64,000 nt of DNA from Alphaproteobacteria bacterium (GTDB lineage: Bacteria; Pseudomonadota; Alphaproteobacteria; JAAXGF01), in contig CAUVXB020000001.1 of assembly GCA_963555825.3 (NCBI GenBank), forward strand, positions 1,024,001 to 1,088,000. The letters run 5' to 3'. The notes below the pieces were generated by a model. That model saw only the letters and a list, made by a program, of their open reading frames with translations, ran no database searches and was not told the DNA's origin. Shown here piece by piece: positions 36,862 through 45,040 of this stretch. Position 1 is the stretch's first letter. Every line of letters starts with the position of its first letter. The position numbers and the translations under genes were made by a program.

Positions 36862-38046
36862 CTAGTGTCCTGATCGATAAATTGATATGATTATGTCTCT
36901 ATTTGTTTTTAGGAGGCGCGATTGATGGCGAGAGTGGCGGTGACGATCTCTTTGAGCGATGACGAGCGCGCCGAATTGGAGGCGCTGTCTCGTCGTCGCA
37001 AGACGTCGCAGGGGCTTGCGCGGCGGGCTCGGATCGTCTTGGCGGCGGCGGAAGGGTTGGAGAACAAGGAGATCGCCGTTCGTCTCGAGGCGAGCGCGGA
37101 CACCGTGGGCAAGTGGCGTCGCCGCTATGCGGCGGAGGGCCTCGACGGTCTGTACGACGAACCCCGCCCCGGCGCGCCGCGTCAAATCGGCGATGACGCC
37201 ATCGCGGAAGCGGTCCGGCTGACGCTGGAAGAGACGCCGCCGGACGCGACCCATTGGAGCCTTCGCTCGATGGCGCGGGCGAGCGGCCACGCGCCCTCGA
37301 CCATTCATCGCATCTGGCGGGCCTTCGGCTTGCAGCCGCATCGCTCGGAGACCTTCAAGCTGTCGAGCGATCCCTTCTTCGTGGAGAAGGTCCGCGACAT
37401 CGTCGGTCTGTATTTGGCGCCGCCGGATCGTGCCCTGGTTCTCTGTGTCGACGAAAAGAGCCAGATCCAGGCCCTGGACCGTTCCCAGCCCCTCTTGCCG
37501 ATGCGCCCCGGGCAGGCGGAGCGGCGCAGCCACGACTACAAGCGCCACGGCACGACCTCTCTCTTCGCGGCCCTCGACATCGCCACGGGAGAGATCATCG
37601 GCAAATGTTTCCCGCGCCATCGGGCCCGAGAGTTCCGCAAATTCCTCGACCTCGTCGAGGCGAACGTCCCTGCTGATCTCGACATCCACATCGTCATGGA
37701 CAACTACGGGACCCACAAGACCAAGGCGATCCGCGACTGGTTCGCCAAACGGCCGCGCTGGCAGGCCCATTTCACACCCACCAGCGCCTCCTGGCTGAAC
37801 CAGGTCGAGCGCTGGTTCGGGCTGCTGACCGACAAGCAGATCAGGCGCGGCGTCCATCGCTCCACCAAGGAGTTGGAGCGCACCATCCTCGACTACATCG
37901 ACACGACAAACCAGAACCCCAAACCCTTCAAATGGACCAAATCCGCCGATGACATCCTCGGCGCCATCCAGCGCTTCTGCCTCCGAACAATCGAAATCGC
38001 TGAACAGCAGGCGAAAATCATGCGAACTTCGGAATCGGGACACTAG
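36862..38046 (+). mobile_element. IS630-family insertion sequence, copy 1 (intact)
   Basis: Inverted ends CTAGTGTCCTGAT / ATCGGGACACTAG; CTAG (TA core) at both ends. Confidence 0.93.
36925..38046 (+). CDS. IS630-family transposase
   Basis: HTH region, then [28 protein letters not shown] motifs; AGGAGG RBS; the stop codon is the terminal TAG. Confidence 0.95.
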
Positions 38047-39035
38047 AGGGTGAGGTCGCCGTCGGGGGGTGCTTGGAAATGGGCGTCTACGTCGGCCTCG
38101 GTCACGGCGGCGAGGCTCGCGGGCCGCCATCGCGGTGCATTGTCCTTGTCGATGACGACGCTGCGGATGCCTTCCGCGAAGTCGTGGTCGGCGCAGAAGC
38201 GTTGGCACAGCCGGTATTCGAGGCGCATGGCGGCGGCGAAATCGAGCGCGGCACCCGCGCGAAGTTGGCGCACCGTCACCTTGAGGCTGGTCGGCGACTT
38301 GGCGGCGAGCGTCGCGCGCGTCGCCTCGGCCCATTCGGTGCCCTCGGCCTCGAGCGCGGTGATGATCGCCTCGATCGTCGCGCCGGCGAAGCAGCGATCG
38401 ATTGCCGCGGCGAAGCCCGCCAGACAATCCTCAACCGGGCACGCGGCCAGCGCGTCGACGAGTTCACCTAGCCGCGCACGCGGCACGAAATGGGTGCCGA
38501 CACCCGCGCACATGACATCGGCGGCACGCAGACGTGCGCCCGTGAGCCCCAGATACATGCCCAGCGCGCCCGGTATGCGCGGCAGGAAATGTGTCGCGCC
38601 GACATCGGGAAACAGGCCGATGCCGGTCTCGGGCATGGCGAACAGGACGTTCTCGGTGACCACCCGATGCGAGCCGTGCACCGAGACGCCGACGCCACCG
38701 CCCATGACGACGCCGTCGATCAACGCGATATAGGGCTTCGGATAGGCATGGATACGGTGGTTCAGCGTGTATTCCTCGCGGTAGAAGGTGGCGCTGAACC
38801 GGTCGCCAGGCGTCGTCATCGAGGCATAGAGCGCGCGGATGTCGCCGCCGGCGCAGAACGCCCGATCGCCGGCGCCCTCGACGACGACTGCGGCGATCCG
38901 CTCGTCCGCCGCCCAATCGATCAGCCGCGCGTCGAGTTCGCGCGTCATGGCGAGCGTCAGGGCGTTGAGCGCCTTGGGCCGGTTGAGCGTCACCCGGCCG
39001 ACGGCGCCGACCACCTCGAAGAGGATTTCGTCCAT
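38043..39035 (-). CDS. 3-hydroxyisobutyryl-CoA hydrolase-like enoyl-CoA hydratase/isomerase
   Basis: [52 protein letters not shown]. Confidence 0.88.
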
Positions 39036-39202
39036 GCTGTCTCGATCCATTTTGCCAAGAGGTATAGGGACTTGTGGAGCACGTCCAGCCCCGAAACGCG
39101 GCCCCGAATACCTCAATTGGGCCGCCATGAAGCCTCATTCGAGCCACATTCTGGCGCTATTTCAACAGTTACCGCGATCGATTGTAGGAGGTTGGCTCGG
39201 AC

Positions 39203-39574
39203 ATGATCACAACGCTTCGTCAGGGTGTTCGCACCCTCGCCGTCATGGCGATCCCGCTTTTCGTCGGCAGCGCCGCCATCGCTGGGGGCATGCCGCCGGA
39301 GGTCGAGATCGACGCCAATGGCGTCCCGGTCACCGCCGATGAAGTGGTGCCAGGCGCCGCTGAACCCACCGTGGCGGCAACGGCCGGCGCAGCGGCCCCC
39401 CTTATTTCCGCTGCGTCGTCCGGCGATCGGCTCCAAGCGATACCCCCCGCCGAGCCGACCGTGACGGTTGCGATCGACGTCACGCCTCTCGACCCGACCA
39501 CCGCAGCATTCGATCCGGGGTCTTTTGTGGCAGGATCGGCCGTAACGCCAATCTGGGCAAAGGACCACCGCTAA
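39203..39574 (+). CDS. hypothetical secreted low-complexity protein (123 aa)
   Basis: AGGAGG RBS, Sec-like signal ending AIA, Pro/Ala/Thr/Val-rich body, downstream terminator. Confidence 0.6.
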   Translation: MITTLRQGVRTLAVMAIPLFVGSAAIAGGMPPEVEIDANGVPVTADEVVPGAAEPTVAATAGAAAPLISAASSGDRLQAIPPAEPTVTVAIDVTPLDPTTAAFDPGSFVAGSAVTPIWAKDHR

Positions 39575-39627
39575 GGCAGCAGGCGTCGCACCCCCGCGGC
39601 GCCCCGTTCTGCTCCCCCTCTCGACTT

Positions 39628-39657
39628 TGGGCGCCGTTCGCGGCACCCACTTTTTTT
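39628..39657 (+). terminator. intrinsic terminator
   Basis: TGGGCGCCG-TTCG-CGGCACCCA stem (1 mismatch) followed by C and T7. Confidence 0.75.
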
Positions 39658-39741
39658 GTGACGCAAAGCCTGCGGCTTTGCTGCGCTCAATCGCCGCGCA
39701 TGCTCTCGCCGCATTAGCGGCGGCCCGCAGTCGCGGGCTGG
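39648..39741. repeat. structured multi-hairpin element A (homologous to 40967-41064, inverted)
   Basis: Four consecutive hairpins; 50/61 ungapped identity to the reverse complement of 40967-41027, with compensatory changes. Confidence 0.75.
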
Positions 39742-39776
39742 CCTAGTCCGACCGATGCCGGTCGATCGGACTAGGC
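39741..39776. repeat. CTAG-containing palindrome
   Basis: GCCTAGTCCGA ... TCGGACTAGGC perfect 11-bp arms. Confidence 0.7.
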
Positions 39777-39777
39777 T

Positions 39778-40944
39778 CTAGTGTCCCGATTCCGAAGTTC
39801 GCATGATTTTCGCCTGCTGTTCAGCGATTTCGATTGTTCGGAGGCAGAAGCGCTGGATGGCGCCGAGGATGTCATCGGCGGATTTGGTCCATTTGAAGGG
39901 TTTGGGGTTCTGGTTTGTCGTGTCGATGTAGTCGAGGATGGTGCGCTCCAACTCCTTGGTGGAGCGATGGACGCCGCGCCTGATCTGCTTGTCGGTCAGC
40001 AGCCCGAACCAGCGCTCGACCTGGTTCAGCCAGGAGGCGCTGGTGGGTGTGAAATGGGCCTGCCAGCGCGGCCGTTTGGCGAACCAGTCGCGGATCGCCT
40101 TGGTCTTGTGGGTCCCGTAGTTGTCCATGACGATGTGGATGTCGAGATCAGCAGGGACGTTCGCCTCGACGAGGTCGAGGAATTTGCGGAACTCTCGGGC
40201 CCGATGGCGCGGGAAACATTTGCCGATGATCTCTCCCGTGGCGATGTCGAGGGCCGCGAAGAGAGAGGTCGTGCCGTGGCGCTTGTAGTCGTGGCTGCGC
40301 CGCTCCGCCTGCCCGGGGCGCATCGGCAAGAGGGGCTGGGAACGGTCCAGGGCCTGGATCTGGCTCTTTTCGTCGACACAGAGAACCAGGGCACGATCCG
40401 GCGGCGCCAAATACAGACCGACGATGTCGCGGACCTTCTCCACGAAGAAGGGATCGCTCGACAGCTTGAAGGTCTCCGAGCGATGCGGCTGCAAGCCGAA
40501 GGCCCGCCAGATGCGATGAATGGTCGAGGGCGCGTGGCCGTCGCCCGCGCCATCGAGCGAAGGCTCCAATGGGTCGCGTCCGGCGGCGTCTCTTCCAGCG
40601 TCAGCCGGACCGCTTCCGCGATGGCGTCATCGCCGTGACGCACCGTCGAGCCTCTATCTACATTCCGCCGCAAACGGCGGGCGATGATGACGCGCATGAC
40701 TTGCCCACGGTGTCCGCGCTCGCCTCGAGACGAACGGCGTGTTCTCCAACCCTTCCGCCGCCGCCAAGACGATCCGAGCCCGCCGCGCAAGCCCCTGCGA
40801 CGTCTTGCGACGACGAGACAGCGCCTCCAATTCGGCGCGCTCGTCATCGCTCAAAGAGATCGTCACCGCCACTCTCGCCATCAATCGCGCCTCCTAAAAA
40901 CAAATAGAGACATAATCATATCAATTTATCGATCAGGACACTAG
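39778..40944 (-). mobile_element. IS630-family insertion sequence, copy 2 (inverted; transposase broken as assembled)
   Basis: Near-identical reverse complement of 36862-38046 with the same CTAG ends; 1-bp deletion near 40540, mosaic patch 40636-40699, 7-bp deletion near 40740. Confidence 0.92.
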
Positions 40945-40966
40945 ATGAGACCCCATATGAACCGCC

Positions 40967-41064
40967 CCAGCGCGCGACCGCGCGCCGCCGACCGTTCGGC
41001 GGAAGCAAGCGCGGCGATTGAGCGCAGGTCAGCTTTACGCGAGTCAGTGACCGCACAAAAAGTG
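40967..41064. repeat. structured multi-hairpin element B (homologous to 39648-39741, inverted)
   Basis: Stems GCGCGC/GCGCGC, CGCCGA/TCGGCG, GCGC-GGCGATTGA-GCGC and GGTCA/TGACC; ends CACAAAAAGTG. Confidence 0.75.
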
Positions 41065-41078
41065 ACCACCGCCTCTAT

Positions 41079-42218
41079 CTACATTCCGAGCAAACGGCGG
41101 GCGATGATGACGCGCATGATTTCGTTGGTGCCTTCGAGGATCTGGTGGACGCGGACGTCGCGCAGGAAGCGCTCGATCGGATAGTCCATCAGATAGCCAT
41201 AGCCGCCGTGGAGCTGCAGCGCCTCGTTGCAGATGTGGAAGCCGGCGTCGGTCGCGAAGCGCTTGGCCATGGCGCAGCGCATGGTCGCGTCGGCGGCGCC
41301 GGCGTCGATCGCTGCGGCGGCGCTCAGCACCATCAACCGGGCGGCCTCCATCTCGGTCGCCATGTCGGCGAGCTTGAACTGGAGCGCCTGGAATTCGGCG
41401 ATCTTGCGGCCGAATTGCTCACGCGTCTGCATGTGTTCGCGCGCCGCCTCGAAGCACGCGCGCGCGCCGCCCAGCGAACAGGCGCCGATGTTGACCCGGC
41501 CGCCGTCGAGCGCCTTGAGCGCCATCTTGAAGCCCTCGCCCTCGGCGCCCAGCCGGTTGGCGAGCGGCACGCGGCAGTCCTCGAGGATCAGCATCGCGGT
41601 CGGCTGGCTGTGCCAGCCGAGCTTGCGTTCCTGGGCACCGAAGCTCAGGCCCGGCGTGCCGTCCTCGATGACCAGGCAGGAGATGCCGGCCGCTCCGTCG
41701 CCGCCGGTCCGTACCATGCAGAGGTAGAGGCCGCTGGCGCCGCCACCCGAGATGAACGCCTTCGAGCCATTGAGAATATAGTGGTCGCCGTCGCGCTCGG
41801 CGCGCGTGCGAAGCGCGGCGGCGTCGGAGCCCGAGCCCGGCTCGGTCAGGCAATAGCTCGCGAAGACGTCCATGGCGATCAGCCCGGGCAGCCAGCGCGC
41901 GCGCTGGTCATCGTCGCCGAAGGCATCGACCATCCACGCCGCCATATTGTGGATCGACATGTAGGCGGCGGTCGATGTGCAGCCGGCGGCCAGCGCCTCG
42001 AAGATCAGCGCCCCGTCGAGCCGGCTCACCCCGGTGCCGCCGTGCGCCTCGTTGACGAACAGGCCGGCCAGGCCGAGCGCCGCCGCCTTGCGCAACGTCT
42101 CGACCGGAAAGGTGCAACTCTCGTCCCATTCGGCGGCGAACGGCGCCATCTCGCCGGCGGCGAAATCGCTCGCCATCTGGTGGAAGGCGCGTTGCTCGTC
42201 GGAAAGCTCGAAGTCCAT
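41079..42218 (-). CDS. acyl-CoA dehydrogenase, isobutyryl-CoA dehydrogenase-like
   Basis: [44 protein letters not shown]; near mmsB and HIB-CoA hydrolase. Confidence 0.88.
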
Positions 42219-42276
42219 CGTCGGAATCCCCCTGCTGCGGCCCGTATGGCGACTGTAACGCGGCGCCTAAGCGAAA

Positions 42277-42308
42277 CCAATATCGTCGGACGCCAATTTC
42301 GTCGGACG
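42277..42308. repeat. tandem 16-bp direct repeat in a divergent promoter region
   Basis: CCAATATCGTCGGACG CCAATTTCGTCGGACG (15/16). Confidence 0.65.
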
Positions 42309-42395
42309 AGCGACGCGGCGGAACGGAGCGCTGTTTCCGCCGAAGAAATTGTCTCGGCAACAACCTCGTCGGTGTTGGTTGCGGCTGGCCTGTAG

Positions 42396-45040
<2,645 letters not shown>

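Follow-up and report, generated by a model that had tools for sequence, protein, structure and literature searches.

The two structured elements A (positions 39648–39780, plus strand) and B (40967–41066, minus strand) of the 64,000 nt window, which is the whole stretch of DNA that was analysed, are two separate copies of one repeat and not a unique pair. Probably this repeat is a lineage-specific, high-copy, non-coding interspersed family whose behaviour is that of a non-autonomous mobile element, comparable in kind to MITE, BOX and Correia repeats. The family appears to be a new one of a known kind, a MITE/BOX/Correia-like mosaic. Its copies are numerous, intergenic and unbiased in orientation, their hairpins covary, its subfamilies are lineage-specific, and sites that are filled in one genome are empty in another.

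The inverted alignment of A and B, on which the earlier note had been built, was reproduced by a repeat search: the arms (39681–39741 and 40967–41027) are 61 nt long, match at 50 of 61 core positions (82% complementarity) and lie 1225 nt apart. Both elements were found by our covariance model (CM R1) and by nhmmer, A at 39649–39780 with 116 bits (nhmmer match C1:1063653–1063780) and B at 40927–41066 with 96.8 bits (nhmmer match C1:1064967–1065062, model columns 5–101), and they are the only CM matches within the window. The CM match to B runs 17 nt into the insertion sequence (IS) that separates the two elements. A is a full unit with the rarer form of the first hairpin (H0b, 39663–39681, an 8-bp stem with a 3-nt loop). 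It is followed on the plus strand by H1 (39683–39699), the best-conserved module, with a GCGC stem and the 9-nt loop TCAATCGCC, by H2 (39707–39722, stem 39707–39712/39717–39722, with a minority C-G closing pair and the loop ATTA), by H3 (39723–39738, stem 39723–39728/39733–39738) and by H4 (39741–39776), an inverted repeat with 15-bp arms that forms the 3′ module of the unit. B has the 5′ end, a degenerate H0 (41028–41053), H1 (41009–41025), H2 (40986–41001, stem 40986–40991/40996–41001) and H3 (40970–40985, stem 40970–40975/40980–40985), all on the minus strand, and is missing H4, an architecture common to 20 of the 224 profile matches in the genome. The compensated stem changes described earlier are both present, one in H2 and one in H3, the loop of H1 is identical in the two copies, the outer hairpins do differ in sequence, and the T-run followed by GTG is found. 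GTGAC does occur at 39658 and 41062 as had been noted, but it does not characterise the family, which ends in TA/CTAG.

As also described earlier, the flanking genes are convergent. Upstream of A lies a gene for a small, secreted-looking protein of 123 aa (39203–39574, plus strand), which was called by a crude codon-usage gene caller, has no Pfam match, and is matched in the related genome G005 by a counterpart at the corresponding position that shares its signal-peptide end motif. B lies just downstream of an acyl-CoA dehydrogenase gene (41079–42218, minus strand; Pfam Acyl-CoA_dh_N, _M and _1).

The IS between A and B (39781–40941, minus strand) is an ordinary IS630-family insertion into the terminal CTAG of A. 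It has a DDE_3 Pfam match (E 1e-21), terminal inverted repeats (39777–39808 and 40914–40945) and a duplication of its target, the terminal TA of A (39779–39780), at 40942–40943. According to the cited passages of PMC2170065, IS630 and ISY100 duplicate TA and IS630 prefers CTAG; the IS studied here resembles IS630/Tc1/mariner elements in its DDE_3 transposase, its terminal inverted repeats and its TA duplication, and all 68 of its full-length copies are flanked by TA on both sides, 66 of them within CTAG. Its plasmid relatives (74–75% identity) are annotated as "IS630 family transposase". The copy between A and B differs from the family in being defective (1161 bp versus the standard 1179 bp). 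Compared to a second, intact copy at 36865–38043 (plus strand; transposase ORF 36922–38046, 374 aa), it has lost 1 nt at one place and 7 nt at another, and it carries a foreign patch of about 66 nt (40637–40702) that replaces IS sequence and, as seen from direct repeats and from the alignment to the standard IS copy, is a copy of the 3′ end of the acyl-CoA dehydrogenase gene (41062–41122). In contigs of public runs the patch region holds the standard IS sequence, 73 other letters. Near-identical strains are represented in public runs, 14 of which contain at least 86% of the sequence words of 38600–39780. An allele free of the IS, in which 39777 is joined to 40941, was found in one contig each of the public runs X8 and X9. 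With the IS taken out, the 61-nt cores of A and B are 62 nt apart, in line with the roughly 60 bp of the earlier note, and the additional hairpin H4 of A leaves a spacer of only about 23 nt (40944–40966) between the element ends. No public-run contig joins across A alone or across B alone; a candidate joint from 39282 to 41538, with 20 letters on a side, was unreliable. The history of the locus is probably this: A and B inserted tail to tail downstream of the two convergent genes, an IS630-family IS then entered the CTAG at the end of A, duplicating TA, and this IS copy later decayed.

Searching the 6.04-Mb genome with nhmmer resulted in 224 matches that merged into 214 elements, making up 0.49% of the genome, and these numbers leave no room for A and B as a special pair. 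Blastn gave 157 matches for A and 187 for B, and the 19-mer of H1 (39682–39700) occurs 173 times with at most one mismatch, while its reversed control does not occur at all. More than half of the length overlaps with a called gene in only 13 of the 214 elements. Of the intergenic elements (201), 76 have convergent, 103 same-direction and 22 divergent genes on either side, compared to 641, 1712 and 781 for all intergenic gaps of at least 50 nt; elements are therefore enriched between convergent genes (76/201 versus 641/3134 gaps), with the reservation that all of these gene-context counts rest on the crude codon-usage gene caller. Between same-direction genes no bias in orientation was observed, with 48 elements in sense and 55 in antisense to the upstream gene. 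Nearest-neighbour identity among the copies is 87%, and since no pair of copies exceeds 92% identity, recent movement in this genome is not demonstrable.

The unit is 130–190 nt long, and the 117 full-length elements range from 100 to 283 nt with a median of 157 nt. It consists of a T-rich 5′ end, H0 in two alternative forms, the H1–H3 core and H4, with TA, mostly as part of CTAG, at both ends. The common H0 is present in 133 and the H0b variant in 5 of the 159 copies that bear H1, and H4, judged by occupancy, is present in 156 of the 224 profile matches. Between H1 and H2 an optional 21-nt module stands in 0 to 3 or more tandem copies, and its pairing partner is a module in the loop of H3. 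Among 138 elements the H1–H2 spacer measures 5–9 nt in 59, 20–29 nt in 53, 40–49 nt in 22 and at least 65 nt in 4, corresponding to zero, one, two and at least three modules, and an array of five was found at C2:1324–1326 kb. With end modules that are fixed and an internal module that varies in tandem number, the unit is BOX-like in architecture, which does not imply homology. With 214 copies too small to encode a transposase, the family also has the size (less than about 300 bp) and number expected of a MITE, and it has terminal inverted repeats as well, although in this genome these are short and imperfect (7.4 of 14 positions matching versus 3.3 ± 1.6 after shuffling, in 19 elements selected for having both TAs). 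The ends are the least conserved part here and the internal core the most conserved one: the 5′ end is 70% identical to the consensus, the 3′ end 76% and H4 77%, compared to 93% for H2 and a mean of 95.8% for H1. Of 150 elements, 96 have TA where the model ends on the 3′ side. At the other end, TA stands 12 nt before H0 in 38 of 109 elements and anywhere from −16 to −9 in 60 of 109, versus 13 of 109 in a control window.

Of the bacterial family, 13 genomes were searched with the covariance model; 10 gave matches, at least 133 in one of them and 46 in G005, and three genomes are without a copy. The H1–H3 core is the part that survives across genera: it is kept in eight or more of them, with the H1 loop unchanged. 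A scan of a genome collection with the 19-mer returned at least 33 stretches; among the matches listed, most are chance matches in unrelated phyla, and whole elements are carried only by MAG contigs of Alphaproteobacteria and by a single contig listed as NC10. Among the genomes searched, the repeat is confined to one small alphaproteobacterial order. The plasmid collection gave no match to the element, and three 17-nt strings of the core gave none in the literature full text of the limited library searched.

Comparison with the related genome G007 revealed three orthologous sites that are filled there and empty here; they were located with extended flanks of the G007 copies, flanks of 40 nt being too short. 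Two of these sites are in the window. At 531–533 (C1:1024531–1024533) the G007 locus L086 carries an element at positions 605–740 with TA on both sides, and at 953–959 (C1:1024953–1024959) the same locus carries an element at 1170–1303. The empty sites have diverged from their filled counterparts. The loci L026 and L027, compared with this genome, showed no clean empty site. At the counterpart of one of these two loci, this genome holds a different TA-flanked MITE. The acd-hibch locus, in which A and B reside, has no element in G005, G010 or G001. Such presence and absence at orthologous sites is what is expected of a MITE. G007 and G000 have different subfamilies (median pairwise identity 90% within G007 and 78% within G000), and a clear terminal inverted repeat of about 14 nt was present in all 20 G007 copies fetched. 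Subfamilies are lineage-specific.

Our data support the view that selection has kept the hairpins. In this genome 91–95% of the stem cells in H0–H3 are paired, versus about 50% or less for most slid controls, and in a cross-genus alignment of 33 rows 14 of 20 pairs change on both sides, values that none of 500 shuffles reached. Across the family, pair 70/75 in H2 is A-T in 174 rows and C-G in 13, pair 83/94 in H3 is C-G in 174 and G-C in 13, and pair 84/93 is C-G in 152 and T-A in 26. The proposal of a new structured motif has held up in that further homologues exist, both in this genome (214) and in relatives (10 of 13 genomes), in that covariation is present in the larger alignment, and in that neither a known Rfam family nor a known IS end was matched. 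The earlier note had also considered that A and B might be paralogous sRNAs or 3′ UTR elements, that is, structured functional RNAs with a role in stability or processing that are kept by selection on RNA structure. The covariation and the enrichment at gene 3′ ends would fit such RNAs, and A folds far better than shuffled sequences on both of its strands (z −5.2 and −6.3), but the sense strand of B does not (z −0.5). The unbiased orientation between same-direction genes speaks against a transcribed function, and so does the ratio of G-T to A-C mismatches (366 versus 280), which leaves no clear strand asymmetry after one consensus G-T pair is set aside. In the region 39100–41400 no promoter-like sites were found, and no terminator-like sites lie within A or B; the three that were found are in the 123-aa gene and in the IS. 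Contigs of an RNA library match the region of B; one of them ends loosely at 41062 and resembles a copy that belongs elsewhere in the genome. The contig that covers 39203–39609 stops before A; assembled contigs of this kind cannot show RNA ends. The Rfam scan of 38500–42500 gave nothing in A or B at E values up to 10, and in a scan of 10 further loci the sole overlap with an element was the rmf-motif, at 25 bits versus a gathering score of 45 (E 0.31). As copies are, moreover, absent from orthologous loci of relatives, we regard a functional RNA as very improbable.

Mobility as such, the other half of the original proposal, came close to the truth, but the REPIN-like doublet moved by an HUH enzyme did not. 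A REP/BIME-type family mobilised by a RAYT (HUH Y1) enzyme, with H1–H3 recognised as folded single strands and A and B as a REPIN-like doublet, would account for GC-rich, extragenic, covarying hairpins and for conservation in the internal core instead of the ends. The genome does contain three Y1_Tnp genes, but the nearest elements are 5, 35 and 24 kb away from them, and a CM search with E values up to 1 found no element within about 1.5 kb of eight RAYT-like loci in six genomes. One of the RAYT genes has a classical REP of the GTAG type (24–43 copies) of its own on its flanks, another has AT-rich repeats there, and only two close inverted doublets exist among the 214 elements, the window pair and C2:1897050–1897322. 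RAYT-like genes and the repeat are both present in 9 and both absent in 2 of 13 genomes; this co-occurrence may only mirror phylogeny, because related genomes are not independent, and the two discordant genomes are G003, with two RAYT-like genes and no element, and G011, with one weak element match and no gene. Taken together, mobilisation by a RAYT appears improbable. We give about as little credit to the idea that the H1–H3 core is a DNA motif recruited by the host as a binding site for a chromosomal protein, carried by a decaying mobile shell, much as BIMEs bind gyrase and IHF. A core conserved at 93–96% in a shell at 70–80%, kept across eight or more genera with an unchanged H1 loop in intergenic, orientation-independent copies, is compatible with such recruitment. 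By our estimate, however, the conservation of the core fits neutral decay of about 5–8% per copy, given the nearest-neighbour identity of 87%, so that no selection after insertion is needed; in addition, three genomes of the family do without a copy, orthologous sites are not conserved, and no binding protein is known. More generally, the H1–H3 core with its unchanging 9-nt loop might be the working part of the element, with an enzyme or a host protein recognising it in the form of folded single strands or of a cruciform, which we consider rather unlikely.

For the preferred reading, a non-autonomous mobile element, the copies would spread by transposition into TA/CTAG, with the transposase supplied in trans, most likely by an enzyme of the IS630/Tc1 type, and the stems may stay paired since replicating lineages need the folded or palindromic form. 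Hundreds of IS630-family copies of five or more types are present in this genome, and none of these types has ends matching the element. The DNA between element pairs consists of ordinary genes with no autonomous partner, and a pattern search of the genome gave no matching termini 600–3500 nt apart. Likewise, no element ends flank the only DDE_3 locus assembled in G007, so that a cognate IS, as is typical for a MITE, was found neither in this genome nor at that locus. G005, despite its 46 CM matches, gave no DDE_3 match, although in this MAG ISs may be unassembled. The right end of the IS in the window weakly resembles the 3′ end of the element (local score 17, reached by 10 of 1000 shuffles).

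Several known repeat systems share features with the family. RIME elements of Sinorhizobium (Rhizobium-specific intergenic mosaic elements) are alphaproteobacterial intergenic mosaic repeats of several palindromes, and by this description they are similar; the repeat studied here is confined, in the genomes searched, to its one order. Like the REP/BIME and REPIN-RAYT systems, it shows GC-rich extragenic palindromes in mosaic combinations with compensated stem changes, but its unit of 130–190 nt holds five different hairpins, doublets are rare, none of the eight RAYT-like loci checked is linked to it, and the genome holds a classical REP-RAYT pair besides, distinct from this family. REP sequences are also favoured landing sites for ISs (IS621, ISKpn1), judging from titles cited in PMC3184786. 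BOX of Streptococcus pneumoniae, as portrayed in the cited part of PMC3049150, is composed of boxA, boxB(n) and boxC, folds tightly if single-stranded and is regarded as MITE-like. The likeness lies in a composite intergenic repeat with fixed ends and a variable number of internal modules, whereas sequence and host phylum are unrelated, the unit here has five GC-rich hairpins, and its variable module pairs with a partner in the loop of H3. Correia (CREE/NEMIS) elements of Neisseria and ERIC elements of enterobacteria are, in the excerpts of PMC3184786 and PMC3049150 that we cite, MITEs of 100–160 nt or more with many copies and no transposase of their own. By description they agree with our family in size, copy number, terminal inverted repeats, TA flanks and location at gene ends, and their mobility, too, is inferred from presence and absence between relatives (PMC3184786, PMC3049150). 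Correia ends, as given in these excerpts, are well-kept inverted repeats of 26 bp, in contrast to the short ends here, which in this genome are the least conserved part, and it is the internal three-hairpin core that is best conserved. Compared to a classical MITE defined by its terminal repeats, the pattern of conservation is reversed.

For annotation, the family explains some 200 stretches of structured intergenic sequence here, and more in its relatives, that would otherwise be flagged as candidate ncRNAs. The CTAG ends of the elements serve as landing sites, and thereby as hot spots, for very active IS630-family elements: 11 of the 68 full-length IS copies adjoin an element end, and a second IS630-type IS was found twice at the identical TA of the 21-nt module. 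In this lineage the repeats are also likely places for genomes to break and rearrange and for MAG assemblies to become chimeric. With a core that is better conserved than its ends, the family provides a compact test case for what keeps repeats folded and how they move. If the core were the working part, the family would be mobile or recruited and defined by its hairpins, unlike terminal-repeat MITEs and GTAG-type REP/RAYT systems, and would have been kept in eight or more genera of a poorly known order of Alphaproteobacteria.

The genome that contains the window comprises two contigs, C1 and C2 (6.04 Mb), and blastn searches of it with the elements A (39648–39780, plus strand) and B (40967–41066, minus strand) gave 157 and 187 matches, respectively, with both contigs represented. 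A profile derived from 28 full-length copies yielded 224 matches at E ≤ 1e-3, which merged into 214 elements covering 0.49% of the genome. This number demonstrates that A and B belong to a family and are not a lone pair. A 19-nt stretch of hairpin H1 occurred 173 times with at most one mismatch, and its reversed control not once. Within the 64-kb window, a covariance model (CM) built from 16 copies matched only A (116 bits) and B (96.8 bits). Of the 13 genomes in the bacterial family, which make up the whole order among the genomes examined, 10 gave CM matches: at least 150 in the own genome, 133 in the relative G007, 46, 42, 30, 15, 10 and 8 in six others and one weak match each in G002 and G011, with none in G003, G008 and G009. 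The G007 copies form a separate subfamily, with a median pairwise identity of 90% compared to 78% in the own genome.

The consensus unit consists of a T-rich 5′ end, the hairpins H0, H1 (a GCGC stem with a 9-nt loop), H2 and H3 (GC-rich 6-bp stems with 4-nt loops), a long H4 and a terminal CTA(G). All modules were present in 49 of the 224 matches, while others lacked H0 or H4; 22 comprised only H0/H1 and 15 only H2–H4. Full-length copies span 100–283 nt (median 157). A 21-nt module can be inserted in tandem between H1 and H2, and its copy number, inferred from the H1–H2 spacer class in 138 elements, was 0 in 59, 1 in 53, 2 in 22 and at least 3 in 4; one locus has five tandem modules. The loop of H3 can hold a partner module, which is able to pair with the 21-nt module around H2.

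An inverted-repeat search recovered the arms of A and B (39681–39741 and 40967–41027; 61 nt, 82% complementary, spacing 1225 nt). The compensatory stem differences reported in the earlier note were seen again on reading the sequence, as both H2 (39707–39722 in A, 40986–41001 in B) and H3 (39723–39738 and 40970–40985) differ on both stem sides. The 9-nt loop in the GCGC stem, described there as invariant, is indeed the same at 39683–39699 (A) and 41009–41025 (B), and each copy has the further hairpin of unlike sequence with an outer T-run followed by GTG. This hairpin is H0, which has two forms, a common one (133/159 H1-bearing copies) and a rare one (5/159); the rare one is found in A, and B has the common one in a degenerate state. 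A strong hairpin with 15-bp arms at 39741–39776 is found in A and is missing from B. At 39629–39657, a GC-rich stem of 8 bp with a single mismatch, located immediately upstream of A, is followed by the T7 run of the element itself. To judge from sequence, this flank and the T7 run look like an intrinsic terminator, unlisted by the consensus scan, for a 123-aa gene (39203–39574). The small protein has a signal-peptide-like start and matched no Pfam family; the short motif closing the signal peptide is at the same position in its counterpart in the relative G005 (L099:513-818).

Standard pairs occupied 91% (H0), 94% (H1), 95% (H2), 93% (H3) and 79% (H4) of the stem cells in 224 rows. When partners were slid by one or two columns, pairing was mostly below 50%, except in the GC-repeat stem of H1 (75–78% at a slide of two). 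Both sides were changed in 126 cells of H0, 6 of H1, 16 of H2, 44 of H3 and 112 of H4. Variant pairs occur on mixed backgrounds, with all four combinations for most site pairs, so that a single subfamily split cannot account for them. RNAalifold recovered H0 to H3 from 16 copies, with both-side changes at 6 of 20 pairs. As to covariation, which the earlier note proposed to check, 14 of 20 pairs changed on both sides in a 33-row alignment that included five other genomes, with 98.1% of cells paired versus 88.9% after shuffling and 0 of 500 shuffles reaching any of the measures; these figures are generous, since related rows were aligned by fitting them to the model. Between genera H1 covaries (C-G versus T-A) while its loop is constant. 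Among stem mismatches, G-T (366, of which 57 come from one consensus G-T pair) barely exceeded A-C (280), which gives no sign of an RNA read from one strand alone. Selection acts on the hairpin structure without being confined to one strand. Nearest-neighbour identity of own-genome copies (median 87%, maximum 92%) points to 5–8% private divergence per copy, which by our estimate yields 91–95% paired cells without selection after insertion.

In 96 of 150 elements extending to the model end, its final two columns read TA; where TA lay near the end (n = 104), the context was CTAG in 41, CTAA in 21 and TTAG in 15. At the other end, TA was located 12 nt before H0 in 38 of 109 elements and within −16 to −9 in 60, compared to 13 of 109 in a control window. 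In 19 elements with both TAs, the terminal 14-nt inverted-repeat match averaged 7.4 versus 3.3 ± 1.6 after shuffling, and 20 copies fetched from G007 have a clear inverted repeat of about 14 nt inside CTAG. At three orthologous intergenic sites, G007 has an element where the own genome has none. Two of them map in the window, near 531 and 955, the first being TA-flanked on both sides in G007. Conversely, the acd-hibch interval, the locus of A and B in the own genome, has no element in G005, G010 and G001. A different TA-flanked MITE with terminal inverted repeats of about 30 nt is present at C1:466729-467000, and a close relative (JAPUHN01 MAG, L027) has a hairpin-repeat element at the matching site, so that the same convergent-gene gap was struck twice by unlike small elements. 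At G007:C168:7706-10369 (L005), the contig sides of one element match own-genome loci 1.26 Mb apart, each with an element; either the repeat mediated a rearrangement, or the MAG assembly is chimeric at this point.

Gene context rests on 4754 genes, covering 79% of the genome, that were predicted with a crude in-house caller based on codon usage. Of the 214 elements, 13 have more than half of their length inside a gene. Convergent genes flank 76 of the remaining 201, same-direction genes 103 and divergent genes 22, against a baseline of 641, 1712 and 781 gaps of at least 50 nt, which indicates enrichment at gene 3′ ends and depletion at promoters. In same-direction gaps, the orientation relative to the upstream gene is sense for 48 elements and antisense for 55. 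Inverted doublets did not prove to be a rule of the family, as the only close ones were the window pair and C2:1897050-1897322.

The 1161-bp insert between A and B (39781–40941; inverted ends 39777–39808 and 40914–40945), which carries a DDE_3 domain, is one of 68 full-length copies, among 82 blast matches, of a 1179-bp IS. Its relatives on plasmids have been annotated as members of the IS630 family, of which at least five types occur in the genome. Each of the 68 has TA at either end, and for 66 the context is CTAG, as already published for IS630 (PMC2170065, including a 1991 title by Tenzen and Ohtsubo from its reference list). Eleven of the 68 adjoin a repeat element, at one or the other of its ends, and a second IS630-type IS (~1179 bp, ~80 blast matches) has entered two different elements (C1:1188870-1190070 and C2:1324423-1326000) at the same TA of the 21-nt module. 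The CTAG/TA of the elements are thus places where ISs land. The A/B copy is a defective one, having lost 1 nt at one place and 7 nt at another and carrying a patch of ~66 nt. The patch (40637–40702) duplicates 41062–41122, at the 3′ end of the neighbouring acyl-CoA dehydrogenase gene, 420 nt off, and with its short shared edges looks like templated repair or gene conversion; contigs from public runs have standard IS sequence there. An IS-free allele does exist, since 39777 is directly joined to 40941 in a single contig from each of two public runs, which belong to different studies. Sequence near-identical to window positions 38600–39780 occurs in public runs of at least five studies, with two labelled sponge metagenome and several bearing host labels; the source organism may be host-associated. 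An intact second copy of the 1179-bp IS (36865–38043; 374-aa transposase ORF 36922–38046) lies directly downstream of an enoyl-CoA hydratase/hydrolase gene (38043–39128). Head-to-tail arrays of 2–4 IS copies with single-TA joints are present at C1:235252-239973, C1:1422089-1425629, C2:2331988-2336707 and four more loci. As G is the first base of the IS and C its last, an IS end plus TA can rebuild the favoured CTAG target; the arrays would then be explained by repeated self-targeting, although they may instead be an artefact of assembly.

Rfam gave no family match to the elements, and a linked RAYT gene was not borne out either: for the three Y1_Tnp genes the closest element is 5, 35 and 24 kb away, and no elements were found in 8 RAYT-like loci of 6 genomes. 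RAYT-like genes and the repeat are both present in 9 of 13 genomes and both absent in 2 (discordant: G003 and G011), a co-occurrence that is a mere lead because the genomes are related. One Y1_Tnp gene has a GTAG-type GC-rich palindrome (24–43 copies) on either side, a classical REP-RAYT pair, and a second is flanked by AT-rich repeats (13–15 copies); the two loci are C2:2726247-2729507 (L003) and C1:1323746-1327075 (L002). Three 17-nt core strings matched no paper in a full-text search of the literature covered. Relatives in kind are REP/BIME and probably the RIMEs of rhizobia, as well as Correia and ERIC elements. The latter two are described as having TA flanks and terminal inverted repeats and as lacking their own transposase (PMC3184786). 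BOX elements have a variable tandem internal module (PMC3049150), like the 21-nt module here.

In the own genome, conservation is lowest at the ends (70–77%) and highest in the internal H1–H2 core (93–96%), the part that persists across genera. This is the main caveat to a mobile repeat and leaves some room for two alternatives, a mechanism that recognises hairpins or a motif recruited by the host. The search for an autonomous element with matching ends found none in the own genome or at the one assembled DDE_3 locus of G007. A non-autonomous mobile repeat of the MITE/BOX/Correia kind is the best account of the family. Such a repeat would probably insert into TA/CTAG by a transposase acting in trans; replicating lineages would keep their hairpins, and fixed copies would decay afterwards.
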